Notes under the pieces: generated by a model
Told to the model about the DNA's origin: nothing
Database searches by the model: none
The model's input: only the letters and a program-made list of their open reading frames with translations
Made by a program: the position numbers and the translations under genes
NCBI GenBank assembly: GCA_018971765.1
Contig: JAGXAA010000002.1
Span: forward strand, 1-29,370
Length of the DNA stretch: 29,370 nucleotides
Direction of reading: 5' to 3'
Source of the DNA: Patescibacteria group bacterium
GTDB lineage: Bacteria > Patescibacteriota > Minisyncoccia > Phycocordibacterales > GWA1-40-21
Shown: positions 2,587 to 27,874 of the stretch, in pieces
How the letters are laid out: the number at the start of each line of letters is the position of its first letter
How positions within the stretch are numbered: position 1 is the first letter of the stretch

Positions 2587-2641
2587 TGAATGGCGCCTTT
2601 TTAAATGTTGGGCGCCGAGTGTCCAATATTTGTTGATGACT

Positions 2642-2778
2642 TTGAATCGCGAAACTCCTGCTCGGCGCGTTATTTTAAGGGTACGGATTTTTCGAAGCTT
2701 GAAAAATCCTGAAGTTCTCGCGCCGCCGCGCTCGAAACCCTCTTAAAATAACGCGCCTCGACGAGTTTCGCGATTCAA
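2642..2778. repeat. Structured palindromic repeat family B, copy 1 (137 nt)
   Basis: Outer 16-bp inverted repeat ttgaatcgcgaaactc / gagtttcgcgattcaa. Second stem gcgcgttatttta / taaaataacgcgc. Central conserved hairpin ggatttttcgaagcttgaaaaatcc, plus a GC hairpin cgcgccgccgcg. The second copy is at 14487-14666. Confidence 0.8.
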
Positions 2779-2839
2779 AGTGATGAAAAGCTTGACTATT
2801 CGCATAGTAATCTGTTAGCATATCATTTGTCGTTTAAAA

Positions 2840-3067
2840 GTGATGGAAAATAAAAAAGCAAAGGATAAAGTGGCGGCAAGCGGAGTGATCATTGAGGCGT
2901 TCCCCAATGCTTTGTTCAAAGTCAAGCTTGAAAAAGAAGGAGCCGAGATACTCGCTTATCTTTCAGGGAAAATGAGAATGAATAGAATAAGAGTCTTGAT
3001 CGGCGACAAGATCATCGTCGAGCTTGATGAGTATGGCGGTAAAGGGAGGATTGTCAAAAGAATCTAG
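2840..3067 (+). CDS. infA: Translation initiation factor IF-1
   Basis: 75 aa, S1-like OB fold. The stretch GVIIEAFPNALFKVKLEKEGAEILAYLSGKMRMNRIRVLIGDKIIVEL is characteristic of IF-1. Confidence 0.92.
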   Translation: MMENKKAKDKVAASGVIIEAFPNALFKVKLEKEGAEILAYLSGKMRMNRIRVLIGDKIIVELDEYGGKGRIVKRI

Positions 3068-3145
3068 TTGGAAATTAGATAGCTTATAAAGCGCAAGAAG
3101 AAATTAATTGTTTAAACCCATAACCCGTAAAGCATAATTTAAAAA

Positions 3146-3262
3146 ATGAAAGTCAAATCATCAGTAAAAAAAATCTGTTCCAAATGCAAAGTCGTGCGCA
3201 GAAAAAAGTATGTGTATGTCGTCTGCGACGCGAATTTGAGACATAAACAGAGGCAGGGTTAA
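3146..3262 (+). CDS. rpmJ: 50S ribosomal protein L36
   Basis: Not in the ORF track because it is shorter than 60 aa. Hand translation of ATG 3146 to TAA 3260-3262 gives [38 protein letters not shown] (38 aa), the classic L36 zinc-ribbon sequence. It sits in the canonical infA-rpmJ-rpsM position. Confidence 0.9.
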
Positions 3263-3291
3263 TTTTATTAAAAAACGCAAATTATTCAAAT

Positions 3292-3672
3292 ATGAGAATT
3301 GCCGGCATAACAATACCTGAAAATAAAAGACTTGAGATAAGCCTTACCGCGGTGTACGGCATAGGAAGGTCTTTGGCGCGCAAAATATTGGACAAATCAA
3401 AGGTTGATTACGGAAAAAAGCCGAAAGATTTGACTCCCGAAGAAGAAAACGAGATTAGGAAAAATGTGGAAGCCCACAAAATAGAAGGCGACTTGAAAAG
3501 AGAAGTTTCTTCCAACATCAAGCGGCTTAAAGACATAAAATCATATCGCGGTTCAAGACACGCCAAGAGATTGCCGTCGCGGGGACAGAGGACGAAGACG
3601 AATTCAAGAACTCTGCGGGGCAATGTGAGAAAAACAATGGGCACAGGCAGGAAGAAAGAAGATAAAAAATAA
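3292..3672 (+). CDS. rpsM: 30S ribosomal protein S13
   Basis: MRIAGITIPENKRLEISLTAVYGIGRSLARKIL is the canonical S13 N-terminus. The C-terminus has the basic tail. Confidence 0.95.
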   Translation: MRIAGITIPENKRLEISLTAVYGIGRSLARKILDKSKVDYGKKPKDLTPEEENEIRKNVEAHKIEGDLKREVSSNIKRLKDIKSYRGSRHAKRLPSRGQRTKTNSRTLRGNVRKTMGTGRKKEDKK

Positions 3673-3684
3673 TTTATTTAATTT

Positions 3685-4119
3685 ATGGGTAAAAAGAGAA
3701 TTGTAAAAAAAGAAGAACAAGAATCCGCGGCTGAAGCGAAAAGTCAGGTTGAGGTTAAATCCGGCAAAAAAAAGCTGGAAGGGGGAATTCTTTTCGTTCA
3801 ATCAACCTACAACAACACGAAAGTCCTTCTTGCCGACCTTAAGGGCAACGCTCTGGCTTGGTCGTCGAGCGGCGCCCTTGGTTTCAAAGGGGCCAAGAAA
3901 GGAACGCCTTTCGCGGCGGCTAAAGTCGGCGAATTGGTTGGAGAGAAGGCGAGCAATATGGGAATAAAAGGAGTTGAAGTGGTCATTAAGGGAGTGGGGC
4001 AAGGAAGAGAGTCTTCCGTAAGAGGATTTCTGTCAAAGGGGATTGATCTTATGGGCATCAGAGACGTCACTCCCGTCCCTCACAACGGACCAAAACCAAA
4101 GAAACCAAGAAGAGTGTAA
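3685..4119 (+). CDS. rpsK: 30S ribosomal protein S11
   Basis: GILFVQSTYNNTKVLLADLKGNALAWSSSGALGFKGAKKGTPFAAA is an S11 signature. Confidence 0.95.
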   Translation: MGKKRIVKKEEQESAAEAKSQVEVKSGKKKLEGGILFVQSTYNNTKVLLADLKGNALAWSSSGALGFKGAKKGTPFAAAKVGELVGEKASNMGIKGVEVVIKGVGQGRESSVRGFLSKGIDLMGIRDVTPVPHNGPKPKKPRRV

Positions 4120-4162
4120 TTTATTTTTTTATTTGATTTTTCGATAATTTTTTAATTAAAAT

Positions 4163-4774
4163 ATGTTAATCGGACCAAGATACAAAAAGGCAAAAAAACT
4201 GGGAGCGCATATCTTTGATAAGACCCAGACGCAAAAATTCGCCCTCAGGCAGTCAATGGGCAAAAAGGATGACAAAAAAAGGGGAAGACCGAAAACCGAT
4301 TTCGGGCTTCAGCTTCTTGAAAAACAAAAAGCGAGGTTCACTTACGGCGTCAACGAAAGGCAATTTTCCAAGTATGTCAAAAGCATAATCAATAAAAAAG
4401 GAGCCAATTCTCCCGACACGCTCGTCCAGATTTTGGAATCAAGGCTTGATAACGTCGTTTATCGGCTGGGGCTTGCCAATTCGCGCCAGGCCGCGAGGCA
4501 GATGGTGTCGCACGGCCATATCACGATAAACGGAAGAAGAAATAACATACCTTCGTATGGTGTCATTGTCGGGGATAAGATAGGCGTGAGCCAAAGGAGC
4601 TTGAAGAATAAGCTTTTTGCCGATTTGGAAAACAAAATCAAAGAGCATAATTATCCTTCTTGGCTTAAGTATGACGCGGCCAAAAAATCTTACGATGTCC
4701 AAGGAATGCCTAAGCTCGCAAACACGGAAATAATGTTTAACGCGGCTTCGGTCATTCAGTTTTACAGCAGATAG
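4163..4774 (+). CDS. rpsD: 30S ribosomal protein S4
   Basis: ARFTYGVNERQF...LESRLDNVVYRLGLANSRQAARQMVSHGHITINGRR is the S4 S4-domain signature. Confidence 0.95.
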   Translation: MLIGPRYKKAKKLGAHIFDKTQTQKFALRQSMGKKDDKKRGRPKTDFGLQLLEKQKARFTYGVNERQFSKYVKSIINKKGANSPDTLVQILESRLDNVVYRLGLANSRQAARQMVSHGHITINGRRNNIPSYGVIVGDKIGVSQRSLKNKLFADLENKIKEHNYPSWLKYDAAKKSYDVQGMPKLANTEIMFNAASVIQFYSR

Positions 4775-4856
4775 TCCGCAAATGCTTGCATAAATCAAGA
4801 AAATGATACATAATTGTTTTTTATCGAATCAATTTAAAAATAATTAAAAGAAACAT

Positions 4857-5819
4857 ATGATTGATCATAACGACATAATTTTACCTTCAAAACCCAAAGT
4901 AATTCAAGAGAAAGATTCAAGCGGCGTCTATGAAATAGACGGATTATATCCGGGCTACGGTCATACGCTCGGGAATTCGCTCCGAAGAATCATATTGTTG
5001 TCGCTCAAGGGAGCGGCGATAACCTCAGTGAAGATAAAGGGGGTAAGTCATGAATTTTCATCAATAAGCGGCGTCAAAGAAGATGTCATAAATATCATTC
5101 TGAATTTGAAAAACATAAGAGTGAAGATGCTCACGGACGAGCCGCAGATTCTGAACCTGAAGGTTAAAGGCGTCAAGGACATCAAAGCGGGGGATATTGA
5201 CGCCCCCGGCCAGGTTGAAGTTTTGAATAAAGATTTATATGTAGCCGGCATTACCGAAAAAAATACCGAATTGTCGATTGAGATGCGGGTGGAAAAAGGA
5301 CTCGGCTATGTGCCCAAGGAAGTCCTTCAGAAAGACAGGGTTGAGGTGGGCGCGATTGTCCTTGACGCTTCATTCACTCCTATCCGCCGAGTGAATTATG
5401 AAGTTGAAAATATGCGAGTCGGCGACAGGACGGATTTCAATCGTTTGAGAATATTCATAGAGACCGACGGCACGATTTCTCCGAAAGAAGCTTTGGAGTC
5501 GTCCGTTCAGATTATGATTGCCCAGCTCAAGGCTATTGTCGGATTTGAAGAGAAAGAAAAGCCTGAGAGGGAAAAATCCATAGAGGCGAAAGAGCCGGAA
5601 GAAAAAAAGGAGGCGGATGTGGAATTCATGAAAACCAGAATAGAGTCCGTTGATCTTTCCACAAGGACGGTCAAAGCCCTTTCGAATGCGAACATAAGAA
5701 CCGTTGGCGGTCTCGCCAGGAAGAAAGAAAAAGATCTTCTCGAGATAGAAGGGCTCGGAACCAAAGGAATCCAAGAGATTAAAAAAACTTTATCCAATTT
5801 CGGCATAACGCTAAATTAA
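4857..5819 (+). CDS. rpoA: DNA-directed RNA polymerase subunit alpha
   Basis: 320 aa. [34 protein letters not shown] is the alpha N-terminal domain signature. It follows rpsD in the canonical alpha-operon order. Confidence 0.93.
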   Translation: [320 protein letters not shown]

Positions 5820-5886
5820 TAAGATAAAGCGATCTCTGGTTTTTTAATAAAATGAATTTTGGAGATAATAATCGGCAATATGAAAT

Positions 5887-6234
5887 ATGAAACATCATAA
5901 ATCAATGAGAACATTGGGAAGAGAAAGAAACCAGAGGAGAGCGCTCCTCAAGTCTCTCGCTTCTTCTTTGATAAAGAGCAAGAAAATCAAAACGACTTTG
6001 GCGAAAGCCAGAGAGCTTCGGCCGTTTATGGACAAGTTCGTCACTCTTTCCAAGAAAGGTGGCTTGAATTCAACAAGATTGATCTCGTCCAAGCTCGGGA
6101 AAGACAGCGCTATGATACTTGCGAAAGAAATCTCGTTGAATTACAAAGACAGGAAAGGCGGTTATACCAGAATAATCAAATTAAACCCCAGAAAGAGCGA
6201 CGGAGCTTTGATGGCGCAGATTGAATTCGTTTAA
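5887..6234 (+). CDS. rplQ: 50S ribosomal protein L17
   Basis: MKHHKSMRTLGRERNQRRALLKSLASSLIKSKKIKTTLAKARELRPFMDK is the L17 signature. It follows rpoA. Confidence 0.93.
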   Translation: MKHHKSMRTLGRERNQRRALLKSLASSLIKSKKIKTTLAKARELRPFMDKFVTLSKKGGLNSTRLISSKLGKDSAMILAKEISLNYKDRKGGYTRIIKLNPRKSDGALMAQIEFV

Positions 6235-6249
6235 TCCGGCGAAAGAATA

Positions 6250-6615
6250 TTGAATTTCAAAATTATGAAAAATATCATAGAAATAGACGCAAAAGGAAAG
6301 AAATTGGGCAGGGTGGCGAGCCAAGCCGCCGTTATTCTAATGGGCAAGAACTTGGTCAATCAAGCGAGGAATATCGTTCCGGAAGTTTCAGTCAGCATCT
6401 CAAATGTTTCCAAATTACAAATTGATTCCAAAAAGAAAAAAGAAAAAGATTACGCCTCTTTCTCCGGTTATCCGGGCGGACTCAAGAAAGAAAGCATGGA
6501 AAAGCTGATTGGCAGAAAGGGTTTCAGCGAGATTTTGAAACTGGCGATTTACGGGATGTTGCCGTCCAATAAATTGAGAGCGAAGATGATGAATAATTTA
6601 ACGATAATCGAATAA
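6250..6615 (+). CDS. rplM: 50S ribosomal protein L13
   Basis: IIEIDAKGKKLGRVASQAAVILMGK is an L13 signature. The true start may be the internal ATG at 6265. Confidence 0.9.
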   Translation: MNFKIMKNIIEIDAKGKKLGRVASQAAVILMGKNLVNQARNIVPEVSVSISNVSKLQIDSKKKKEKDYASFSGYPGGLKKESMEKLIGRKGFSEILKLAIYGMLPSNKLRAKMMNNLTIIE

Positions 6616-6618
6616 AAT

Positions 6619-7068
6619 ATGACGCCGATTAAAAATGAAGACAATAAAATGGAAAAAGATTCAAAAATGGAAAGAAAGAAGACCTACATAGAGGCCGTCG
6701 GAAGAAGGAAGACGGCCAGCGCCAGAGTCAGAATCGTTGAAAGCGCGAAAAACAATTTTAATGTTAATGGCAAAAGCTTGGAAGATTATTTCAAAGTAAA
6801 AGAGTTGACGGAGATTGCGAGTGAATCTTTGCTCAAATCCAAAACACCCGCGAATTTCAGCGTTTCCGCGAAAATAAAAGGAGGAGGAATAAGCGCTCAA
6901 GCTGAAGCTTTTAGACTCGGCATTGCCAGAGCGCTTGTGATCTACGATAATGAATTAAGAAAGAAATTGAAGGGCGCGGGATTTTTGAAGAGAGACCCGA
7001 GAGCGAAAGAAAGAAGGAAATTCGGCCTCAAAAAAGCCCGAAAAGCCCCGCAATGGTCAAAGAGATAA
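6619..7068 (+). CDS. rpsI: 30S ribosomal protein S9
   Basis: YIEAVGRRKTASARVRIV and the C-terminal ...KKARKAPQWSKR are S9 signatures. The gene follows rplM, the conserved rplM-rpsI pair. Confidence 0.93.
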   Translation: MTPIKNEDNKMEKDSKMERKKTYIEAVGRRKTASARVRIVESAKNNFNVNGKSLEDYFKVKELTEIASESLLKSKTPANFSVSAKIKGGGISAQAEAFRLGIARALVIYDNELRKKLKGAGFLKRDPRAKERRKFGLKKARKAPQWSKR

Positions 7069-7182
7069 TATTTTGCAAGATATTTTAGGTCTTTGGATCA
7101 TGGGAAGTTATGTAAAATATTTAAATTCTCCTCAATTTCCTGTCCGCTTGTCGCGGGGTTCTCGGTTTTTCTGAAAACACAT

Positions 7183-7208
7183 TGACTTTCCATTGGAATG
7201 GTATATTC
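7183..7208 (+). promoter_or_regulatory. Candidate sigma-70-type promoter in the S9/holB gap: TTGACT -35 and an extended -10 tgGTATATT
   Basis: ttgactttccattggaatggtatattct. The -35 hexamer is at 7183-7188. A TGn-TATATT element lies at 7199-7207, or TATTCT with a 16-nt spacer. It sits ~115 nt upstream of a small ORF at 7323. Confidence 0.35.
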
Positions 7209-7322
7209 TATTTTTAGACGCGCGTTTTATTAATTCTGAGAAAATGCAAAGGAGGCGGTGTTCCCGTCGTTCGTTGATTTTTATTATCTTGTTTTTATTT
7301 TTAAAATAGAGAGAGAGGGAAA

Positions 7323-7496
7323 ATGGCTAGGAGAAAAAAAGAAGAAAATAAAATAATGAGATCGGTTAAGAAGTCGGAAAGGAAATGTTTTAAAATTTGC
7401 TATTCCGATTCCAAGCAGCATTTTCGACCGCATGTAATTTTTAATTCTTTTGGTTTGAAGGAGGACACCGCATTACCGGCCATTGCTCAGAGGTAA
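7323..7496 (+). CDS. Small basic hypothetical protein (57 aa), apparently a stand-alone transcription unit
   Basis: Hand-translated: MARRKKEENKIMRSVKKSERKCFKICYSDSKQHFRPHVIFNSFGLKEDTALPAIAQR. It is below the ORF-track size cutoff. A GAGGG RBS lies 4 nt upstream. A candidate promoter is at 7183 and a strong intrinsic terminator at 7521. I see no match to any ribosomal protein I know. Confidence 0.35.
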   Translation: MARRKKEENKIMRSVKKSERKCFKICYSDSKQHFRPHVIFNSFGLKEDTALPAIAQR

Positions 7497-7520
7497 TTTA
7501 ATTATCCGCGATAAAATATT

Positions 7521-7557
7521 AGAGACTTCAGTTTGTATGACTGAAGTCTTTTTTATT
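7521..7557 (+). terminator. Rho-independent terminator
   Basis: agacttcag-ttgtat-ctgaagtct (perfect 9-bp stem) followed by TTTTTTATT. Confidence 0.7.
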
Positions 7558-7628
7558 ATTCTCGCAGAGAAGGGGTGGCTTTATTCATTTATTTGCTCTT
7601 TAAGCGGAAAGTGGTCTATAATTTTCAT

Positions 7629-8366
7629 ATGAATAAAGTTTTAGACTTGAAATCGGCCTTTCCGAATCTAATGGAAAAACTTCATCACGCTTATTGCTTG
7701 GAAGGGAAGCGCGAAAATATTTTGAAAGAATTGCTTGAATTTCTGGAAAATGTTTTACAATTTCGCCCCAAAGGGAACCCCGATTTTTATTACGGCGGTT
7801 TTGAAACTTTTGGAATTGACGACGGAAGGATAATCAATGAAACGCAGTCCAAAAAAGCCGTGTCTTCCGCGAGGAGAATTTTCATAATAGCGGCGAATTT
7901 TATCACGAAAGAGGCCCAAAACTCTCTTCTTAAAATGTTTGAAGAGCCGTCGGGCGGGGCGGTATTCTTTTTGATAATTTCTTCCGCGAGCATTCTTTTG
8001 CCGACTCTCCGTTCAAGGATGATAATTATGAACTTCAACCGCGTCTTAAGGTCGAGCGAAGCCGGTCAATCTGAGAAATCGGAAGATATTTTTGACGCAA
8101 AAAAATTCATCAAGTCCTCGATAGTTGAACGGCTGGCTATGGCAAAAAACATCTCGGATAAAATTGCCGATGAAGAAATAAGCAGATCGGTCGCCGCGGA
8201 TTTTTTAAACGGTGTTGAGAAAGAACTGGCGGGTAGGGCTGGAAAAGGCGGAGTCAAAAAAGAAGACATATTCATGTTCAATGAAATAGACAAATGCCGA
8301 AATTACGGGGGCGACAGATCACCCTCCATTAAAATGCTTCTTGAGCATATAGCGGTGACGCTTTAG
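7629..8366 (+). CDS. holB: DNA polymerase III delta-prime-like clamp-loader subunit (AAA+ fold; Walker A degenerate)
   Basis: HHAYCLEGKRENILKELLEFL resembles the HAYLF motif region. FIIAANFITKEAQNSLLKMFEEPSGGAVFFLIISSASILLPTLRSRM matches the sensor-1/SRC region of the delta-prime and gamma family. The start is taken at the internal ATG 7629 (MNKVLDL); the ORF-track start at 7575 overlaps the terminator. Confidence 0.5.
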   Translation: MNKVLDLKSAFPNLMEKLHHAYCLEGKRENILKELLEFLENVLQFRPKGNPDFYYGGFETFGIDDGRIINETQSKKAVSSARRIFIIAANFITKEAQNSLLKMFEEPSGGAVFFLIISSASILLPTLRSRMIIMNFNRVLRSSEAGQSEKSEDIFDAKKFIKSSIVERLAMAKNISDKIADEEISRSVAADFLNGVEKELAGRAGKGGVKKEDIFMFNEIDKCRNYGGDRSPSIKMLLEHIAVTL

Positions 8367-8446
8367 CTTGAGTTGGATTTTTAAACAGTCGATGGTATTA
8401 TGGAAGCATTATTTAAATACTTTTAACGGAAGTAAAAATAAAAAAT

Positions 8447-8998
8447 ATGTTATACGATTTTGGAAAATTAAAAAGCAAAACCGGGGAGGTTGAAGAATGG
8501 CTGAAGAAAGAATACGCGGGCATAAGGACGGGAATGGCGACTCCGGTCCTTCTTGACAATATTGTCGTTGAATCTTACGGAAGCAGGATGGGCATAAAGG
8601 AATTGGCGAGCGTGAGCACGGAAGACCCCAGGTCTATTCGCGTTTCTCCGTGGGATTCTTCGCAGACGGCAAGCATTGAAAAAGCCATCACTCTGGCGAA
8701 CCTCGGGGTTTCTCTAAGAGTCGATGAAAAAGGCATTCGAGTGTTATTTCCCGAACTGACCACTGAAAGAAGATCCTCTATCGTAAAAGTCGCCAACGGC
8801 AAACTTGAAGAAGCCAAAGTCTCTCTTCGCTCCGCCCGCGACGAGGCGTGGAGCGAAATTCAGAAGAAGGAAAAGGAGGGCGGGATGGGCGAGGATGATA
8901 AATTCAGATTAAAGAATGAAATGCAAAAAATCATTGACGACGCCGCCAAAAAACTGGAAGAAATCGCCGCAAAAAAAGACAGGGAGATAATGTCTTGA
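8447..8998 (+). CDS. frr: Ribosome recycling factor
   Basis: 183 aa with RRF signatures throughout: LKKEYAGIRTGMATPVLLDNIVVESYG...IRVSPWD...IEKAI...LGV..R.....IRV..PELTTERR. Confidence 0.92.
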   Translation: MLYDFGKLKSKTGEVEEWLKKEYAGIRTGMATPVLLDNIVVESYGSRMGIKELASVSTEDPRSIRVSPWDSSQTASIEKAITLANLGVSLRVDEKGIRVLFPELTTERRSSIVKVANGKLEEAKVSLRSARDEAWSEIQKKEKEGGMGEDDKFRLKNEMQKIIDDAAKKLEEIAAKKDREIMS

Positions 8999-9079
8999 AA
9001 CAGGTTTTAGGAAATAAAAATCAATAGTCATATATTCTTTTCCGCCTATAACCTAACGCCTAATACTAAAACCTAAAAA

Positions 9080-10165
9080 ATGTCCATAATAATTTTCATA
9101 ATAATACTTGCCGCTCTGATCTTTGTTCACGAACTTGGGCACTTTATCATAGCCAAGAAATTTGGAATCAGGGTTGATGAATTTGCCATCGGTTTTCCTC
9201 CAAAAATTTGGAGCAAGAAATATGGCGAGACGACTTACGCGATAAATTCAATTCCTTTCGGCGGTTATGTGAAAATTTTCGGAGAGAATCCGAACGAAGA
9301 ATCAATGTCCGGCCCGGACAGCGCTAGGAGTTTCATAAACGCTTCAAGGCCGAAGCAGGCCGCGGTGCTTGTTTCCGGAATCGTCTTCAATATTTTGTTC
9401 GCGTGGATTATTTTGTCCATTTCTTTTATGACGGGACTTACGACATCTGTTCAAGGTTACGGTCCGTACGCGAAAGACCAGCGTATTATTATCATCGCGG
9501 CGCAAACGGATTCGCCGGCGCGCAGAGCCGGACTTGTCGGAGGAGAAACTTTAATATCTTTGGAATCAGGAAACAAAAAGATTGACAATCTTAGTGTCGC
9601 TGATGTGCAGGATTTTATAGCGAAGAGTGGTGGCCCGATAAAAATAAATTACAAGCGGGACAATGATTTTAAAACCGCGATAATTACCGCGGCCGAAGGC
9701 ATTGTCTCGGGCAGGAAGGCGATAGGCATAGCTATGGATGAAGTCGGCGTGGTAAAGCTTCCGCCGAGCAAAGCTTTTTTTGAAGGAGCGAAACTAGCGG
9801 GCATAACGACCAAAAATGTGGCAATCGGGCTATATCGTTTCATTTTTGACGCGTTCAGAGGCAAAGCCGATTTCTCTCAAGTGACCGGTCCTGTCGGCAT
9901 TGTCGGGCTTGTCGGGGAAGCGTCGACTCTTGGCATTGTTTATTTAATGAGTTTCGCCGCGTTTATTTCGTTAAATCTGGCCGTCATAAATATAATTCCT
10001 TTTCCCGCCCTTGATGGCGGACGGCTTCTTTTCGTTGCCATTGAAGTCCTGAGAAGAAAAGCGATAAGCCCGAAAATAGCGAATAATCTAAACGCCGCCG
10101 GCTTCGCCTTGTTGATTCTCTTGATGCTTGTCGTCACCTATAAGGACATTGTTAAGATGTTTTAG
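9080..10165 (+). CDS. rseP: RIP site-2 metalloprotease (RseP/YluC family) with a PDZ domain
   Basis: HELGH zinc motif in TM1 (FVHELGHFIIAKKFG), a central PDZ-like segment, and the C-terminal LNLAVINIIPFPALDGGRLL motif. Confidence 0.9.
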   Translation: MSIIIFIIILAALIFVHELGHFIIAKKFGIRVDEFAIGFPPKIWSKKYGETTYAINSIPFGGYVKIFGENPNEESMSGPDSARSFINASRPKQAAVLVSGIVFNILFAWIILSISFMTGLTTSVQGYGPYAKDQRIIIIAAQTDSPARRAGLVGGETLISLESGNKKIDNLSVADVQDFIAKSGGPIKINYKRDNDFKTAIITAAEGIVSGRKAIGIAMDEVGVVKLPPSKAFFEGAKLAGITTKNVAIGLYRFIFDAFRGKADFSQVTGPVGIVGLVGEASTLGIVYLMSFAAFISLNLAVINIIPFPALDGGRLLFVAIEVLRRKAISPKIANNLNAAGFALLILLMLVVTYKDIVKMF

Positions 10166-10196
10166 CGTTTGGAAGTATCTTTTCCAAATCACTTTG

Positions 10197-10296
10197 ATTA
10201 CGAAACGGAAAAATTTAAGTCCTCGGGTCGCAAAAACTCTTTGTCTTTCAAGGTGTTTTTGCTCAACCAGACTGTAAATTTTTCCGCTTCGTAATT
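10197..10296. repeat. Repeat family A, copy 2 (100 nt)
   Basis: gattacgaaacggaaaaatttaagtcctcgggtcgcaaaa...gtttttgctcaaccagactgtaaatttttccgcttcgtaatt. Intergenic between rseP and a secreted-protein gene. Confidence 0.85.
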
Positions 10297-10416
10297 CACA
10301 GAAATCATGGAAAAATTATTTTCTCTTCTTAAACTTGCCGTCTGAAATTCTTCGGCCTTTTTATTTTGACCAGCGTATTTTTTTCCTGTATCATTTCGGC
10401 TATGAGGCAAATTTGA

Positions 10417-11322
10417 TTGCCGGCTAAGATATCAAATAATATCATTATATTTATGGAATCGAACGGAGTAAAATATTTATTTTTGACCATGATTGTCGCA
10501 GTGGCAAGCTTTTTTATCATTCCAAATTTTTCTTTCGCGATCAGCGAGGAAGAAAAGACTCAAGCTTTGATTGATTTTTTTCAAAATCATCTTGTTCAGT
10601 TGCGGAATGAGACGAAAGATTCGAATCAATGGTGCTACGATTTTGAGAATAATTTGAATATGGGTGATGAAAACAACGATGTTTACAATCTTCAGATCGC
10701 TTTGCAGAAAGACGGCTTTGACACTGGAATAACGGAGACGAACGAACAAGAGCCAACGGTTTACTTTGATGAAAAACTCGCCTCATTGGTTTCCGGTTTC
10801 CAGATGAAATACAAAGATGAGATTCTGATCCCGAACAATCTTCAATACGGCAACGGATTCGTCGGTCAAGCCACAAGGGATAAGTTGAATAAATTGTATG
10901 GGTGCTGGAAAGATATTACTCCTTCAATCACCCTCCTTTCGCCGAATGGGGGAGAGAAACTGGCGATAGGTCAGACTTATACGATAAAATGGTCTTCTCA
11001 AAACATTCCGTCAGGCAAATTAATCACAATCAGCGTTTATAATCCGGCAAAAAATGACAGAAGAAATATGATTGAGCGCGTCGTCAATAACGGAGAGATA
11101 CGATGGACCGTGCCGACCGTTTTGGATGCGGGAGAAAAATACTATCTTATGGTTGAAGTTGGTTGCGATAGTGGAGGAAGGAATTGCATCGCTAGCGATA
11201 AAAGCGACGAGCCGTTTAGCGCAGTCAGCGTATCTTCCGGCAATTCGCCGTCTTCATCCGCCGCTTCTGATTGGCAAACTTACTTTATGAAATTTTTGAA
11301 ATCCTTTAATTTTGCGAAATAA
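10417..11322 (+). CDS. Secreted protein with a peptidoglycan-binding (PG_binding_1-like) domain and a C-terminal beta-sandwich-like domain
   Basis: Signal peptide ...MIVAVASFFIIPNFSFA; the alternative start ATG 10453 (MESNGVKY) gives a cleaner signal peptide. DVYNLQIALQKDGFDTGI...LVSGFQMKY...GNGFVGQATRDKL matches the PG-binding helical repeat pattern. A Ser-rich tail follows. Confidence 0.6.
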   Translation: MPAKISNNIIIFMESNGVKYLFLTMIVAVASFFIIPNFSFAISEEEKTQALIDFFQNHLVQLRNETKDSNQWCYDFENNLNMGDENNDVYNLQIALQKDGFDTGITETNEQEPTVYFDEKLASLVSGFQMKYKDEILIPNNLQYGNGFVGQATRDKLNKLYGCWKDITPSITLLSPNGGEKLAIGQTYTIKWSSQNIPSGKLITISVYNPAKNDRRNMIERVVNNGEIRWTVPTVLDAGEKYYLMVEVGCDSGGRNCIASDKSDEPFSAVSVSSGNSPSSSAASDWQTYFMKFLKSFNFAK

Positions 11323-11330
11323 TCATATTT

Positions 11331-12590
11331 ATGAAGCAATCTCAATTATTATCCAAAACTCGCAAGGAAGCGCCTAAGGACGAGGCGTCGAAAAACGCGG
11401 AGCTTCTGATTCGCGCCGGTTTCATTCACAAAGAAATGGCGGGAGTTTATTCTTTCTTACCCCTTGGTTTGCGGGTTTTGAACAGGGTTAATGATATAAT
11501 CCGTGAAGAAATGAACGCGATCGGCGGGCAGGAAATTCTTTTGACCACCCTTCAAGACAGGGAACTTTGGGAAAAGACGGGAAGGTGGAGCGACGAGGTC
11601 GTGGATAATTGGTTCAAGACCAAGCTCAAAAGCGGGACGGAGCTAGGGCTCGGCTTCACTCACGAAGAGCCTTTGACCGCGCTTATGAAAAATCACGTGA
11701 GGTCGTTCAGGGACTTGCCTTTGTATCCTTATCAAATACAGACAAAATTCAGGAATGAAATGCGCGCGAAAAGCGGAATTATGAGGGGACGAGAATTTCT
11801 TATGAAAGACCTTTATTCATTTTCCAGAGACGAAAAAGAACACAGCTTGTTTTATGAAAAAGCCAAGCTTGCTTATATGAGTATATTTGATAAGGTTGGC
11901 ATTGGAGAGATGACTTACATTACTTCCGCTTCCGGCGGAACTTTCAGCAAATATTCGGACGAGTTTCAGACGATTACGGATGCCGGCGAAGACACGGTAT
12001 ATGTCTGCGAGGGTTGTAAAATCGCGATTAACGGCGAGGTTCTTGAAGGCAAGAAAGAATGCCACAATTGCAGACTCTCTGATTTAAAAGAGAGAAAAGC
12101 CGTGGAGGTCGGCAACATTTTCAATTTGGGAATAAGATTTTCTGAAGCGCTCAATCTGACTTATCTTGATGAAGAAGGAAAAGAAAAATTTGTCGTTATG
12201 GGAAGCTATGGGCTTGGCCCCACTCGTCTTATTGGGACTATTGCCGAGACTCTGTCCGACAAAGACGGTTTAGTCTGGCCGAAGCGAGTGGCGCCGTTTG
12301 ATGTTCATCTTGTTGAAATTTCCGATGAAAACAATGAGGTGAGAAAAGTGTCCGAGCGAGTATATTCAATGCTAAAAAAACGCGGGGTAGAAGTCCTTTT
12401 TGACGACAGGGAATTGAGAGCAGGCGAGAAATTCAAAGATTCAGATTTGATAGGAATACCCTTAAGACTCATAGTAAGCAAGAAAACTTTTGACGGCGGC
12501 TTATTCGAAGTGAAAGAGAGGGCGAGCGGAAAAATTTCAATGATCAAAGAGGACGATCTCTGCGGTTTCGCTAGAGATTATTTGAAGTAA
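11331..12590 (+). CDS. proS: Prolyl-tRNA synthetase, bacterial-type N-terminus but short (419 aa), no INS editing domain
   Basis: LLSKTRKEAPKDEASKNAELLIRAGFIHKEMAGVYSFLPLGLRVLNRVNDIIREEMNAIGGQEILLTTLQDRELWEKTGRW aligns with the bacterial ProRS N-terminus and motif 1. A Cys4 cluster CEGCKIAINGEVLEGKKECHNC sits where INS normally lies. Confidence 0.85.
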   Translation: MKQSQLLSKTRKEAPKDEASKNAELLIRAGFIHKEMAGVYSFLPLGLRVLNRVNDIIREEMNAIGGQEILLTTLQDRELWEKTGRWSDEVVDNWFKTKLKSGTELGLGFTHEEPLTALMKNHVRSFRDLPLYPYQIQTKFRNEMRAKSGIMRGREFLMKDLYSFSRDEKEHSLFYEKAKLAYMSIFDKVGIGEMTYITSASGGTFSKYSDEFQTITDAGEDTVYVCEGCKIAINGEVLEGKKECHNCRLSDLKERKAVEVGNIFNLGIRFSEALNLTYLDEEGKEKFVVMGSYGLGPTRLIGTIAETLSDKDGLVWPKRVAPFDVHLVEISDENNEVRKVSERVYSMLKKRGVEVLFDDRELRAGEKFKDSDLIGIPLRLIVSKKTFDGGLFEVKERASGKISMIKEDDLCGFARDYLK

Positions 12591-12629
12591 TTAAAGGGCG
12601 GTCGATATGTTTTTAAGATTTGAAATGAA

Positions 12630-13691
12630 ATGAAGAAAAAACTGTTCAGTAAAATATACAAGATGATGTCCAATGAGATAGGAATTGACTTGGGAACGGC
12701 CAACACTCTCGTCTATCTCGGAGGCAAGGGGATTGTGGTCAATGAGCCGTCGGTGGTCGCCCTCAATCAGAAGACGGGCAGAGTGGTCGCCGTCGGCTCT
12801 CACGCCAAAGAGATGCTTGGCCGCACGCCCGCGCATATTGTCGCGATCCGCCCCCTCGTGGACGGCGTCATCTCGGATTTTGAAGTGACGGAAGAGATGA
12901 TTACCTATTTTATAAAAAGAGCGGAGGAACATTCAAAGAAAATGTTCGGACCGAGAGTCGTGGTCGGCGTTCCGTCAGGAGTCACCAATGTCGAGATAAG
13001 AGCGGTTCGCGACGCAACCAGAAATGCCGGCGCCAGAGAAGTCTACATAGTGGAGGAGCCGATGGCCGGAGCGATAGGAATAAGACTGCCCGTCAATGAC
13101 CCCGTCGGCAATATGATAATTGACATCGGAGGAGGGACGACTGACATTGCCGTAATATCCTTGGGCGGAATTGTCCGTTCCAAAAATTTAAAAATCGCGG
13201 GAGACAAGTTCAACAACGACATAACCTCGTACATAAGAAGCGAATTCAAAATTCTAATCGGCGAGAAAACAGCCGAAAATCTCAAGATTGCCATCGGCTC
13301 CGTGATGCCAGCGGAAACGGCTGAAGTTTCGGTAAAAGGCAGAGATCTGATTACGGGACTGCCGCGCGAAGTCGTCATCACCGACTCGGACGTAAGGGAA
13401 GCCATGGCGCAATCCGTCGACAATCTTATTGAAGCGGTTAAAGAGGTGTTGGAAACGACTCCGCCGGAAGTGATCTCCGATGTTATGCAAAGGGGCATTC
13501 ATTTGGTCGGCGGGGGGGCGCTGATTAAGGGGCTGGATGAACTTTTGCGGAAGTGGTTTAAAATTCCGGTGTTCATAGCGGACGATCCTCTGACGGCCAT
13601 CGCGAGGGGAACCGGAATAATTCTCGAAAATTTAAAAGAATTTGAAGAAGCGCTGATTCAAAACGAAGATGAATTACCTCCTAAAAAATAA
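12630..13691 (+). CDS. mreB: Rod shape-determining protein MreB (actin homologue)
   Basis: IGIDLGTANTLVYL phosphate-1 motif, DIGGGTTD, and LVGGGALIKGLDELL. Confidence 0.93.
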   Translation: MKKKLFSKIYKMMSNEIGIDLGTANTLVYLGGKGIVVNEPSVVALNQKTGRVVAVGSHAKEMLGRTPAHIVAIRPLVDGVISDFEVTEEMITYFIKRAEEHSKKMFGPRVVVGVPSGVTNVEIRAVRDATRNAGAREVYIVEEPMAGAIGIRLPVNDPVGNMIIDIGGGTTDIAVISLGGIVRSKNLKIAGDKFNNDITSYIRSEFKILIGEKTAENLKIAIGSVMPAETAEVSVKGRDLITGLPREVVITDSDVREAMAQSVDNLIEAVKEVLETTPPEVISDVMQRGIHLVGGGALIKGLDELLRKWFKIPVFIADDPLTAIARGTGIILENLKEFEEALIQNEDELPPKK

Positions 13692-14475
13692 TCGTAAGGC
13701 GTCAAATAAAAAATGGCAACTGAAAGCGGTCGTTGCGATTCTTATATTCGCGGTATTTTTTTTCGTTTCGCGCGCGCCCGCGTCTAAAGGATTTTTGAAC
13801 GGAATCGCTCTTCCTTTCTGGGGGCTTGAAAATTACACTTTTGCCAAATTTTCCGAATACGCAAAGGCAATAGGATCAAATGAATCTCTTATTTCCGAAA
13901 ATCAGGCCATGAAAGAAGAATTGGAAAAAAATAAAACAGATTTGGCGGCTTTTAAAATTGTCCAAAAAGAAAACGATGATTTGAAAGCTTTGCTCGGAAG
14001 AAATGATTCAAAAAGAAGCTTTGTATTGGCCGCCGTCTTGGTGAAGCCGAGCATATCGCCTTTTGACGTTATCATTATTGACATAGGAAAGAATAAAGGC
14101 GCGAAAGCGGGGGATAAAGTTTTGTATAATGGAATGATTGCCATCGGAGAAATTGAAGAAGCGTACGACAAATCTTCCAAGGTCAAGCTTTATTCAAGTT
14201 CGGGAGAAAAAGTTATCGCCCTTATAGGCCCGAAATCGACGCAAACGGAAGCGGAGGGAATCGGCGGCGGCAATTTTACGGCCAAGTTGCCGCGGGACGC
14301 GGAAGTGAAAGAGGGAGACGCGGCGGTCGTCCCGAGCATATCGACTTCGGTTTTCGGATTCGCTCAAAAGATTGAAATCAATCCGGCGGAATCTTTTCAG
14401 AAGATTATCTTCAGAATGCCGGTAAATTTGTCCGAACTCAAATGGGTGGAAGTGGAAACGAGTTCCAATAATTGA
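13669..14475 (+). CDS. mreC: Rod shape-determining protein MreC
   Basis: N-terminal TM, coiled-coil region, and C-terminal beta domain (VIIIDIGKNKGAKAGDKVLYNGMIAIGEIEE). The gene overlaps the mreB stop. Confidence 0.8.
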   Translation: MNYLLKNNRKASNKKWQLKAVVAILIFAVFFFVSRAPASKGFLNGIALPFWGLENYTFAKFSEYAKAIGSNESLISENQAMKEELEKNKTDLAAFKIVQKENDDLKALLGRNDSKRSFVLAAVLVKPSISPFDVIIIDIGKNKGAKAGDKVLYNGMIAIGEIEEAYDKSSKVKLYSSSGEKVIALIGPKSTQTEAEGIGGGNFTAKLPRDAEVKEGDAAVVPSISTSVFGFAQKIEINPAESFQKIIFRMPVNLSELKWVEVETSSNN

Positions 14476-14486
14476 TTTACCGTGAA

Positions 14487-14666
14487 TTGAATCGCGAAAC
14501 TCTTTCTCGGTATGTCTTTTTTAGGGTACGGATTTTTTGAAGCTTAAAAAATCCTGAAGTTCTCGTCCCTCACCAGTTTTGATTTTAGAAATTTCCATTT
14601 CCAAAACTGGTGAGGGACTCGAAACCCCCTAAAAAAGACATACCTTCGACGAGTTTCGCAATGCAA
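14487..14666. repeat. Structured palindromic repeat family B, copy 2 (180 nt)
   Basis: Shares the outer inverted repeats and the central ggattttttgaagcttaaaaaatcc hairpin with copy 1. The second stem is compensated (gtatgtctttttta / taaaaaagacatac). The variable hairpin is a perfect 17-bp stem gtccctcaccagttttg / caaaactggtgagggac. Confidence 0.8.
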
Positions 14667-14683
14667 GGTGATTTTATAAAAAA

Positions 14684-20946: not shown

Positions 20947-21735
20947 ATGAAGAAAATAACTAATCTTAATGGATTATCAATTACGAAACGGGAAAATTCA
21001 GGTCCTCGGGTCGCAAAATCTCTTTGTTTCTTAAATGTTTTTGCTCAACCAGATCGTAAATTTTTCCGTTTCGTAATTAAAAGTAATAGATTAAAATTAT
21101 CGGCGATTATCCTTATATTTCTGATTATGCCGGCAATCACTTTCGCTTTTACGCGCGGTCCGGACGGTTATAATTATTACGACTATCAATCAAACTATCC
21201 TATTGGCGGCCTAATATTCGGCGGAGGCAGTTTCGGCGGCAGCGGTCTATTTTGTTCCGGCGGTTACTATCCCACTTTCTGCAGCGTTATTGAATTTTTC
21301 CTAGGTCTTATAGGAAAATCAATTCCGATTCTTATTTCCATCTCCATTATAGTTTTCGTCTGGGGCGTATTCAGATATGTTATGTACGAAGGAGAAGACA
21401 GGCAAAAAAGCAGAGATGTGATGATGTACGGGATCATCGGTCTGTTTGTAATGGTGTCGGTCTGGGGTTTGGTCGCGCTGGTATATAACACTTTCGGCCT
21501 AAATAATACCAACAACTCCATCTATTATTACGGCAGTGGCGGATATGGCATCGGAAGCGGCGGGGGAGGCGGATTTAGCGGCAGCGGGAGCGGATTGGGA
21601 AAGGCGGCTTTTGACGGCAGTAGCTCTGGCAACGGCGGCGCAAATGACAACACTTCCGGAAGTCCCTTTGGTTTGCCGCCAATCAAGCTCGCTCCCAGCG
21701 ATTTGTCCTTACCGCTTAACACTTCCATAAAATAA
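20947..21735 (+). CDS. Exported two-helix-hairpin protein, paralog C (TrbC/VirB2-pilin-like) with Cys pair and long Gly-rich tail. Repeat A copy 3 lies in-frame in its 5' end
   Basis: Cys pair FCSGGYYPTFC. Hairpin ISIIVFVWGVFRYVMYEGEDRQKSRDVMMYGIIGLFVMVSVWGLVALV. Tail YYYGSGGYGIGSGGGGGFSGSGSG. ATG 20947 (MKKIT...) resembles the paralog starts, but the frame runs through the 100-nt repeat. Alternatively the gene starts downstream at a non-ATG codon. The start is uncertain. Confidence 0.4.
   Translation: MKKITNLNGLSITKRENSGPRVAKSLCFLNVFAQPDRKFFRFVIKSNRLKLSAIILIFLIMPAITFAFTRGPDGYNYYDYQSNYPIGGLIFGGGSFGGSGLFCSGGYYPTFCSVIEFFLGLIGKSIPILISISIIVFVWGVFRYVMYEGEDRQKSRDVMMYGIIGLFVMVSVWGLVALVYNTFGLNNTNNSIYYYGSGGYGIGSGGGGGFSGSGSGLGKAAFDGSSSGNGGANDNTSGSPFGLPPIKLAPSDLSLPLNTSIK
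20979..21078. repeat. Repeat family A, copy 3 (100 nt), embedded in the open frame of paralog C
   Basis: aattacgaaacgggaaaattcaggtcctcgggtcgcaaaa...gtttttgctcaaccagatcgtaaatttttccgtttcgtaatt. Confidence 0.85.
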
Positions 21736-21756
21736 ACATAATAACTTATGATTCCG

Positions 21757-21860
21757 AATTACGAAACGCAAAATTTAGGTCCTCGGGTCGCAAAAACTCT
21801 TTAATGTTATCACAAGGTGTTTTTGCTCAACCAGACCATAAATTTTCGCGTTTCGTAATT
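21757..21860. repeat. Repeat family A, copy 4 (104 nt)
   Basis: A perfect 16-bp terminal inverted repeat ccgaattacgaaacgc / gcgtttcgtaattcgg with the same conserved core. It sits between paralogs C and D. Confidence 0.85.
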
Positions 21861-21951
21861 CGGGATTATGCACAGCCCGCTTGCCTTTTATTGTATGAGA
21901 GTTATAATTTATTAACTTGAAAGAAAGTCAATTATTAATTATCAAATTCTT

Positions 21952-26309: not shown

Positions 26310-26392
26310 TTTTTTGATTAAAAGCAATTGTACCATATTTAAGACGATATTTCCGCTATTCAAAATTTGAGCATCCTTATTTTTTCTGAAAG

Positions 26393-26482
26393 TGTGGATA
26401 ATTTTAAAAGTTATCCACACTTTTTGTTTGCTTATGTGTGGCGAAGTGGGATAAAATGCCAGTGTTGTGGGAAGAAGTGGGA
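26393..26482 (+). promoter_or_regulatory. mraZ upstream control region: a perfect palindrome plus four phased GTGGG (MraZ-box-like) direct repeats
   Basis: Palindrome tgtggataattttaaaagttatccaca (26393-26419). GTGGG-type boxes sit at 26436, 26446, 26467 and 26477, a ~10-bp helical phasing, immediately upstream of mraZ ATG 26496. Confidence 0.5.
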
Positions 26483-26495
26483 AGTAAAAAATATT

Positions 26496-26930
26496 ATGCT
26501 CATAGGCGAATACAAACACGCGCTGGACGACAAAAAAAGGATTTCTCTTCCGGCGAAATTCAGGAAGGAGATGGGCAAGAAAATAGTCATCACGCCCGGT
26601 CTTGATAATTGTCTGTTTGTCTTCACTATGGGGCAGTGGAATAAAATTTCCGAAAAGCTTTCCCAGTCGTCAATGCTGAAGGCCGACAGCCGAAGTTTCA
26701 ACAGGTTTATGTTCGGCGGCGCGGTGGAGGTGGAGATTGATTCCATCGGAAGAATGCTTATTCCGGACTTTCTCATAGAGAGAGCCGGTCTAAAAAGCAG
26801 AGTCGCCGTCATCGGGGTGGAGGACAGGGTTGAAATTTGGAACGAAGAAGGGTGGATGAATTACAAGAAGATCGTGGAGAAAGAAGCGGACGCGCTGGCG
26901 GAAAAACTCGGACAGGTCGGGGTTCTGTGA
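26496..26930 (+). CDS. mraZ: Transcriptional regulator MraZ
   Basis: MLIGEYKHALDDKKRISLPAKFR and the second DxxxR repeat DSIGRMLIPDFL identify the duplicated MraZ/UPF0040 fold. Start at the internal ATG 26496. Confidence 0.9.
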   Translation: MLIGEYKHALDDKKRISLPAKFRKEMGKKIVITPGLDNCLFVFTMGQWNKISEKLSQSSMLKADSRSFNRFMFGGAVEVEIDSIGRMLIPDFLIERAGLKSRVAVIGVEDRVEIWNEEGWMNYKKIVEKEADALAEKLGQVGVL

Positions 26931-26941
26931 AAGCAACGGCT

Positions 26942-27874
26942 ATGACGATACACAAGTCAGTTCTTTTAAATGAAGCGATAGGAGGCCTTAATTTAAAATC
27001 CGGCGACATATTTTTCGACGGGACTTTGGGCGGAGGCGGGCACAGTCAAAAGGTCTGCGAGCTTTTCGGCAAGAGCGTCAAAATCATCGGAGTGGACAAG
27101 GACAGTCAAGCCGTGAAAAGAGCGACCGAAAAATTTGAAACTTTGGACTGCGATTTTAATTTTCAAACGGCGAGTTTCAGAAATATCGGCGAGGTCCTGG
27201 ATAATTTGAATCTCAAAGAGGTAAACGGAATTCTTCTCGACCTCGGTTTGAGTTCGGACCAGATTGAAGACTCGTCGCGCGGTTTTTCATTCCAAAAGGA
27301 CGAGCCGTTGATTATGACATTTTCGAAGGAATACGAAAACGGAACGACGACGGCTCAAACCGTGATAAACGAATGGAGCGAAGAAACTTTAGCGGACATA
27401 TTATTTGGCTACGCCGATGAACGCTACGCAAGAAAGATAGCCAAGAAAATTGCCGAGGTCCGCCGAATCAAGCCGATAGAAAAAACTTTTGAGCTTGTGG
27501 AGATAATCAAGAGCGCCGTGCCTGTCGGATACCGGAAAGGCAGGATACATTTCGCCACAAAAACTTTTCAGGCAATCCGAATCGCGGTGAATGATGAACT
27601 TGAAGCCCTGAAAGAAGGGCTTGCCGAGAGTTTCGAAAAACTTGCCCGCGGCGGAAGAATGGCGATTATTTCTTTCCATAGCGGGGAAGACAGGATTGTC
27701 AAAAACTTTTTTAAAAATAAGAAAGCGGTCAGCGGCGGATTTATCGCGACCAAAAAGCCGATCATTGCAAGCGAAGAGGAGCTTGCGAGAAACCCGAGAG
27801 CGCGAAGCGCGAAACTCCGAATTTTTGAGAAATCTACCGCGCCCATTTTAAATTTTGAACATCTTAAAATTTAA
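26942..27874 (+). CDS. rsmH: 16S rRNA (cytosine1402-N4)-methyltransferase RsmH (MraW)
   Basis: HKSVLLNEAIGGLNLKSGDIFFDGTLGGGGHS and FHSGEDRIVKNFF are RsmH signatures. Start at the internal ATG 26942; the upstream extension is Arg-rich junk overlapping mraZ. Confidence 0.9.
   Translation: MTIHKSVLLNEAIGGLNLKSGDIFFDGTLGGGGHSQKVCELFGKSVKIIGVDKDSQAVKRATEKFETLDCDFNFQTASFRNIGEVLDNLNLKEVNGILLDLGLSSDQIEDSSRGFSFQKDEPLIMTFSKEYENGTTTAQTVINEWSEETLADILFGYADERYARKIAKKIAEVRRIKPIEKTFELVEIIKSAVPVGYRKGRIHFATKTFQAIRIAVNDELEALKEGLAESFEKLARGGRMAIISFHSGEDRIVKNFFKNKKAVSGGFIATKKPIIASEEELARNPRARSAKLRIFEKSTAPILNFEHLKI

Follow-up and report, generated by a model that had tools for sequence, protein, structure and literature searches.

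The stretch of DNA analysed here, referred to as the window, comprises positions 1 to 29,370 of contig JAGXAA010000002.1 (29,370 nt, forward strand; assembly GCA_018971765.1) from a Patescibacteria group bacterium of the Phycocordibacterales. It carries two copies of a branched palindromic repeat, termed family B, each lying between genes. Copy 1 is preceded by a DsbA-like gene and by an open reading frame (ORF) for a 511-aa protein (1051-2586) with no Pfam match, and is followed by a run of genes beginning with infA and rpsM. Copy 2 lies in a string of genes, after mreB and mreC and ahead of an 89-aa gene (no Pfam hit) and PBP2, where it occupies the 208-nt spacer between the mreC stop (14475) and the start of the 89-aa gene (14684). 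A first-pass annotation, made from the letters alone, had placed the two copies at 2642-2778 and 14487-14666, at operon seams. Both the positions and the context hold in the sequence, although the ends of the element extend to 2640-2780 and about 14485-14668. A promoter-like site (TTGACT-18-TG-TAGCAT, 2792-2821) lies just 3' of copy 1, between it and infA, and the insertion therefore appears to lie upstream of the likely infA promoter and not within it. No terminator-like site was found in or directly after either copy, and no T-run follows either. The features of the two copies are as follows.

2640..2780, plus strand: copy 1, whole element, 141 nt (from the centre outwards, the core and then on each side the arms, a terminal repeat and a 3-nt end)
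2634..2639: left target-site duplication of copy 1, TGATGA, 3 nt outside TGAAT...ATTCA
2781..2786: right target-site duplication of copy 1, TGATGA
2642-2657 / 2763-2778: outer inverted repeat of copy 1, 16 bp, perfect, TTGAATCGCGAAACTC / GAGTTTCGCGATTCAA
2643..2657, plus strand: left terminal inverted repeat of copy 1, TGAATCGCGAAACTC, the 5' strand of outer stem P1
2763..2777, plus strand: right terminal inverted repeat of copy 1, GAGTTTCGCGATTCA
2664..2682, plus strand: 5' strand of the second stem, P2, of copy 1, GGCGCGTTATTTTAAGGGT, from the fold, a covarying helix
2737..2757, plus strand: 3' strand of P2 of copy 1, from the fold, a covarying helix
2681..2741, plus strand: 61-nt three-way-junction core of copy 1 (GUAC, P3 hairpin, UGAAG, P4 hairpin, AAACCC)
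2685..2709, plus strand: P3 hairpin of copy 1, GGATTTTTCGAAGCTTGAAAAATCC
2715..2736, plus strand: P4 of copy 1 (UUC/GAA, internal loop UCG/CUC, then G-CGC-CGCC-GCG-C)
about 14485..14668, plus strand: copy 2, whole element, about 184 nt
14487-14502 / 14651-14666: outer inverted repeat of copy 2, 14/16 matched, both mismatches being in the right arm
14488..14502, plus strand: left terminal inverted repeat of copy 2
14651..14665, plus strand: right terminal inverted repeat of copy 2, decayed, with 2 mismatches
14526..14628, plus strand: core of copy 2, 103 nt owing to an insert in P4
14530..14554, plus strand: P3 hairpin of copy 2
14565..14618, plus strand: lineage-specific 54-nt hairpin of copy 2, with a 17-bp stem, replacing the normal P4 tip

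A short GGCGCC hairpin, to which the first-pass annotation had also drawn attention, does precede copy 1 (2592-2616; arms 2592-2597 and 2611-2616, 6-bp stem, 13-nt loop), immediately following the stop codon that ends the 511-aa ORF, but it has no T-run and gives no sign of significance.

When folded as RNA, both copies adopt one architecture, in which an asymmetric internal loop separates outer stem P1 from a P2 helix of about 18 bp, and beyond P2 lies a three-way junction bearing P3 and P4. Folding energies are -69.3 kcal/mol for copy 1 (z = -9.9) and -82.9 kcal/mol for copy 2 (z = -13.1), and none of 200 shuffles folded as well. The minus strand (-74.4 kcal/mol) and a calculation with DNA energy parameters (z = -9.8) are equally extreme, as expected of a palindrome. 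Most of the anatomy originally described for the pair is borne out by this comparison: the common 16-bp outer repeat is perfect in copy 1 and lacks two matches in copy 2, the second stems differ at several positions between copies while pairing is kept inside each, and the conserved central hairpin P3 is present in both with a single compensated pair different (C-G to U-A). The third hairpin had been described as swappable. This is correct for copy 2, which carries its 54-nt hairpin at P4, but the GC hairpin of copy 1 is simply the ordinary P4 of the family (G-NNN-CGNC-NNN-C). Across the alignment of the two copies 79% of columns are identical and the main gap reflects a distal hairpin that is 43 bases longer in copy 2. 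Neither copy contains an ORF, and both are well below the ~500 bp limit for MITEs, or miniature inverted-repeat transposable elements.

The family is not confined to the pair from which it was first described. A profile search over 1.24 Mb of collected loci (numbered with the prefix L) returned 198 hits representing 170 distinct copies. These loci are biased to pattern-positive regions and their genes are simple ORF calls. A scan of one genome per species with two junction strings gave 46 loci, of which 44 were genuine, all in metagenome-assembled genomes (MAGs) of Patescibacteria; the remaining hits, in Streptomyces and Vicinamibacterales, were rejected as chance matches within coding DNA. 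According to the labels given in the database records, the genome hits belong to Nomura-, Yanofsky-, Yonath-, Adler- and Taylorbacteria, to Paceibacterota and in some cases to Saccharibacteria. A looser pattern matched at least 120 metagenome loci and no viral contigs. A covariance model built from 33 copies recovered 54 copies in 363 kb, including divergent ones missed by the pattern, and within the window it detected none beyond the two already known (116.8 bits, E = 3e-35 for copy 1; 111.6 bits for copy 2). Copies can be locally dense: about 20 near-identical ones are scattered over unrelated sites of a single Nomurabacteria genome, and L042 (Paceibacterota SO_2017_LW4_151, contig JBAZKU010000001.1) has four copies in 8 kb (2639-7446). 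Each of the four starts where a housekeeping gene has its stop codon, the genes being those for PNPase, a DksA-like protein, ComM and RNase Y. Three of these four carry a second core variant, UGAAAUUGGC-UCG-CCGUCG-CUC-GCCAAACCCC.

Rfam gave no hit at gathering score in the window and holds no comparable family. Its only matches at E <= 10 were two microRNA-precursor models (scoring 29 and 17 bits where the threshold is 100), which are hairpin artefacts. A tRNA or tmRNA origin was also discarded, ARAGORN finding neither in the window. No description of the family turned up in searches of the literature on Patescibacteria (the candidate phyla radiation) concerning MITEs, REP elements, palindromic repeats or structured RNAs. 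The family apparently represents a large, undescribed group of small hairpin-shaped mobile DNA repeats spread across Patescibacteria.

The most constant part of the element is its centre. The core is 61 nt long in 142 of the 170 copies and runs GUAC, P3 (typically GGAUUUUUU-GAAGCUU-AAAAAAUCC), UGAAR, P4 and AAACCCC. In P4, UUC/GAA is followed by UCG/CUC as an internal loop and then by a stem of 3-4 bp capped by a CGNC loop. Most core positions are 0.9-1.0 conserved. The search patterns fix 22 of the 61 positions, and core conservation is thus partly a matter of ascertainment. High values are nevertheless also found at positions that the patterns do not force, and junction and loop residues reach 0.97-1.00, including 21 P3 positions free of any search pattern. 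Mean pairwise identity is 0.80 in the unforced core, but in the arms it drops to 0.60 over the proximal 10 nt and to 0.38 distally; the closing helix has a median length of 34 bp. Within the 33-sequence alignment, 94.1% of cells are paired as against 77.5% after shuffling and at most 66% when partners are slid, and double-sided changes number 165 against 53 in shuffles. Individual core pairs covary as follows.

Core pair 37-54: CG 72, UA 36, GC 23
Core pair 42-49: GC 67, CG 64
Core pair 43-48: UA 68, CG 66
Core pair 8-26: UA 125, AU 10
Core pair 13-21: UA 118, CG 10

Extra hairpins are tolerated at three places, namely the P4 tip (window copy 2 and L026), the P3 loop (L011:6253) and the position after P3 (L159). 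Two of those in other members are themselves short palindromes with further occurrences elsewhere. One, CCTGCCTGCCGGCAGGCAGG, a perfect GC-rich palindrome of 20-24 nt, sits inside the P3 loop of a single family B copy (L011:6323-6346) and is found again at L031:2910-2930, L066:11906-11929, L067:6073-6093 and L085:6525-6545. The other, the short insert of L159, is also present in L040 and L041, and these genomes thus contain additional kinds of small palindromic repeat. The 54-nt hairpin of copy 2 has no second match in the collected loci.

Both window copies belong to a subfamily in which the hairpin ends in a 13-nt terminal repeat, TGAAT(T/C)(A/G)CGAAAC, or 13-16 nt where an adjoining (TC) is included, which as a pair reads TGAATTACGAAAC ... 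GTTTCGTAATTCA. The same repeat is found in MFTH01, L131, L157, L064, L097 and L159. In 13 of 16 copies with this repeat, target-site duplications, AT-rich direct repeats of 7-8 bp, stand 3 nt beyond it; that of copy 1, TGATGA, matches at 6 of 7 positions. An empty site is available for copy 2: in L049 and L052, whose MreC proteins are 61-72% identical to that of the window, mreC overlaps or abuts the 89-aa gene and no element is present. Further pairs of filled and empty alleles occur at 80-92% flank identity. Arms derived from the target, by inverted duplication of the flank or by insertion into an existing palindrome, were considered but not adopted: one or two pairs (e6 and e34) give a hint of this, but three other pairs have their arms wholly inside the insert.

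The relationships among copies also point to mobility. Copy 1 is 89% identical to a metagenomic copy (L131) and copy 2, without its P4 insert, is 91-92% identical to Nomurabacteria copies, whereas the two window copies are only 83% identical to one another. Because each is nearer to copies of other genomes than to its partner, the compensatory substitutions that had been noticed between them are, judged on identity, differences between two sub-lineages of the element. In one Adlerbacteria MAG of higher GC content (C24_bin-2304), copies have entered protein-coding genes in frame and without stop codons, in sense orientation in lepA (L025:1800-1921) and in antisense orientation in uvrB (L016:446-566, adding 40 residues). 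These insertions add about 35-40 residues and are the only intragenic cases among the 170 copies, those of the window being intergenic; in uvrB, reconstruction of the duplication yields no clean frame.

A second palindromic repeat of the window, family A, shares these ends.

206-302, 10193-10302, 20979-21080, 21748-21869: four copies of family A, about 95-120 nt each

Family A matches family B in its 13-nt terminal repeat (TGAATTACGAAAC), in its 3-nt ends and in having a 7-bp duplication (AATTTAT at 210-301), but its interior, AAATTTAAGTCCTCGGGTCGCAAAA ... TTTTGCTCAACCAGACTGTAAATTT, is unlike that of family B. Termini shared around different interiors imply that the termini would be the transposition module and the interior its cargo, and family A is probably mobilised by the same transposase as family B. 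The 5' part of an ORF for a pilin-like protein (20923/20947-21735) contains the family A copy at 20979-21080.

Taken together, the window copies are best explained as non-autonomous palindromic mobile DNA of MITE-like type, belonging to a family restricted to Patescibacteria as far as sampled, with a probability of roughly 0.7. In addition to small size and lack of coding capacity, the subfamily has terminal repeats, a duplication of fixed length, multiple copies and presence/absence polymorphism, all of which characterise MITEs. Insertion is supported by the terminal repeats, the AT-rich 7-bp duplications, the empty sites of relatives and the burst of copies in another genome. A DDE-type transposase acting in trans would recognise the 13-nt ends and make 7-bp staggered cuts. 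The three-way junction with its closing stem is probably an older palindromic repeat in its own right, carried as cargo; copies without the terminal repeat lie mostly just after stop codons, with closing stems of 25-45 bp and locus-specific distal sequence. Copy 2 is probably co-transcribed within the mreB-mreC-mreD-PBP2 string, because it lies inside a string of genes with no promoter-like site nearby. There it puts 208 nt between the mreC and mreD-like cistrons, which were formerly coupled, and by analogy with Correia and ERIC elements the hairpin of roughly 40 bp in its transcript would uncouple their translation and be a substrate for an RNase III-type enzyme.

Several observations weigh against a MITE-like origin. 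Classical MITEs are conserved at their ends and not at their centre, whereas here the centre is the conserved part (0.80 against 0.38 identity). The terminal repeat is carried by about 12% of the family and is lacking in ~85-88% of the 170 copies. No recognisable target-site duplication flanks copy 2. Pairs of terminal repeats 200-5000 bp apart in the collected loci were only adjacent small elements, no autonomous insertion sequence or transposase bearing these terminal repeats was found among the 1.24 Mb, and the 17 loci of the high-copy genome share no paralogous ORFs beyond overlaps with a peptide encoded by the element itself. The partial ascertainment of core conservation noted above belongs here too, as does the placement of copies relative to genes, which would also fit a role in the transcript.

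This placement is the principal argument for a different explanation, in which the junction is a functional cis-acting RNA of 3' untranslated regions (UTRs) or intercistronic spacers, concerned with protein binding, processing or stability, and mobility is secondary. Orientation was counted with greedy gene calls, since spurious ORFs made simple counts unreliable. Copies lie mostly at gene 3' ends, right after stop codons that their arms often overlap. Between tandem genes 56 are in sense and 19 in antisense orientation (p = 2e-5), and convergent spacers are favoured over divergent ones (44 against 19). Some copies are followed by an intrinsic terminator and hence lie within 3' UTRs, and diverged genomes share occupied sites after rpsR, rpsT, mraZ and rny. 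The near-invariance of junction and loop nucleotides while the helices covary would likewise suit an RNA. However, selection on RNA pairing normally leaves G·U as the commonest exception, and no such excess is present on the plus strand. Counted from arm-to-arm alignments (counts from minimum-free-energy folds being biased by a constant loop-closing G·U), isolated mismatches of the distal arms comprise 19 G·U, 34 A·C and 61 of transversion type, and those of the core helices 8 G·U against 13 A·C, with changes running from one Watson-Crick pair to another. Antisense copies are as well conserved as sense ones, with 1.2 against 1.4 core mismatches and equal stems. The same sites (after rpsR, after rny and between mraZ and rsmH) are filled in either orientation in different lineages; in the mraZ-rsmH spacer, three other genomes have a sense copy (L004, L015 and L027) and a fourth an inverted one (L045). 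In the window itself the mraZ-like and rsmH ORFs (26367-26930 and 26837-27874) appear to overlap and carry no copy. Recently transposed copies are oriented at random, the in-frame copy within uvrB is antisense, 46 kb of sequence from the nearest relatives of the window genome is free of family copies, and no Rfam family matches. A cis-acting RNA is therefore rather unlikely as the primary explanation.

The first-pass annotation had offered two readings of the covarying stems, as the signature of a structured RNA or as part of an ERIC-like transcribed palindromic unit. The latter has been upheld by the terminal repeats, duplications, empty sites and many copies. The possibility raised in that annotation, that no copies exist beyond these two, is refuted by the 170 distinct ones. 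The former has not: the covariation is real, but with no G·U excess, with the two strands folding equally well and with conservation independent of orientation, covariation alone does not indicate a sense RNA. The constraint on the stems is most likely exerted on DNA, as a folded single strand or a cruciform, or through a junction-binding protein; a sense RNA is a less likely target. On this view the bias in placement would arise from the tolerance of particular sites for insertions, or from insertion favouring one strand.

Constraint of this DNA type is also what would be expected if folded single-stranded DNA were the form in which the whole family is mobilised, by an enzyme that recognises hairpins (HUH/RAYT-like, IS200/IS605-like or a recombinase), with the junction as its recognition site and the terminal-repeat subfamily as a secondary capture. 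The central position of the conserved part and the lack of a terminal repeat in most copies are consistent with such an enzyme, several filled and empty pairs have their arms in the inserted DNA with no clean duplication, and the orientation bias could reflect the replication strand. On the other hand, no gene for an enzyme of this kind recurs beside copies: recurrent neighbours are only housekeeping genes (efp, rpsR, map, comM, rny, xthA and mraZ/rsmH), none of them transposase-like. Nor was a conserved target tetranucleotide seen, and the 7-bp duplications of the window subfamily are not made by such enzymes. As an account of the whole family this is distinctly unlikely. A broader proposal can be put forward tentatively, that the 61-nt junction is the recognition module of an undescribed Patescibacteria system. 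It could be either the cis-site of a hairpin- or junction-recognising enzyme for mobilisation or maintenance, in an element defined by its centre, or a protein-binding RNA of gene 3' ends captured by a conventional transposon.

The junction also recalls a self-cleaving ribozyme of the hammerhead type, having GGGU-A before the hairpin, CUGAAG, and CGAAAC before the closing strand. The topology is type III-like, with a short 5' junction strand, a purine-rich strand of 5-7 nt and a GAAAC 3' strand, and the strings CUGA.G and CGAAAC are present. However, a hammerhead would require the invariant core C3-U4-G5-A6-N7-G8-A9 and G12-A13-A14, a pair A15.1-U16.1 and an unpaired H17. No Rfam hammerhead hit appears even at E <= 10, the equivalent of C3 is base-paired and covaries (GC 133 against AU 3, L024 and L041 having compensated variants), the equivalent of G12 covaries with position 37 (CG, UA, GC) and that of A9 is U, leaving a hammerhead very improbable. 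Independent hairpins of chance likeness, or ordinary intrinsic terminators at operon seams, would suit the intergenic position of both window copies but have a negligible claim against 170 homologous copies, covariance-model E-values reaching 1e-38 and the lack of a trailing T-run or terminator call at either copy.

Among known systems, the MITE-like elements proposed here closely resemble ERIC and Correia elements, which are likewise wholly palindromic units of 100-200 bp. Those too have terminal inverted repeats and duplicate their targets, lie mostly between genes, are co-transcribed and include larger variants that have internal insertions at fixed sites. The hosts of those elements are Enterobacteriaceae and Vibrionaceae for ERIC and Neisseria for Correia, whereas family B belongs to another phylum. 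Family B further differs in its 7-bp rather than TA-type duplication, in being best conserved at a central three-way junction and not at its termini, and in the many copies that lack the terminal repeat and have locus-specific distal arms. Effects of RNase III or RNase E on mRNAs have been reported for both ERIC and Correia elements, and inversion in situ for the latter (PMC10969869). The palindromic elements of Rickettsia, which sit in frame inside protein genes (PMC10969869), offer a likeness of behaviour; no relation in sequence was seen. They are palindromes of about 100-150 bp found in frame and stop-free in conserved genes, as family B is in lepA and uvrB, but only 2 of 170 family B copies are intragenic and neither is from the window. 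REP, BIME and REPIN elements are also extragenic palindromes at gene 3' ends, sometimes several per few kb (as in L042), whose stems stay complementary and within which other small palindromes are nested. Family B is much larger than these, has a branched tip and no GTAG-type 5' motif, and is accompanied by no RAYT gene that could be seen or by any recurrent transposase-like neighbour. One of its subfamilies makes 7-bp duplications foreign to RAYT/HUH chemistry, and its core is conserved over many candidate-phylum-level lineages of Patescibacteria instead of being species-specific.

Patescibacteria have small, streamlined genomes that are usually described as repeat-poor, and a widespread, structured and locally dense family, with four copies in 8 kb at one locus and about 20 in one genome, is notable for this reason. 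The family enters essential genes in frame. It may serve as a marker for genome dynamics and horizontal exchange in uncultivated Patescibacteria, and is likely to break assemblies and to cause errors in the calling of gene starts and stops. For the discovery of RNA motifs it counsels caution, as DNA palindromes can yield strong covariation together with extreme folding z-scores; a count of G·U against A·C mismatches helps to separate them from structured RNAs. Finally, the invariant 61-nt junction would provide a handle for finding the protein that recognises it.

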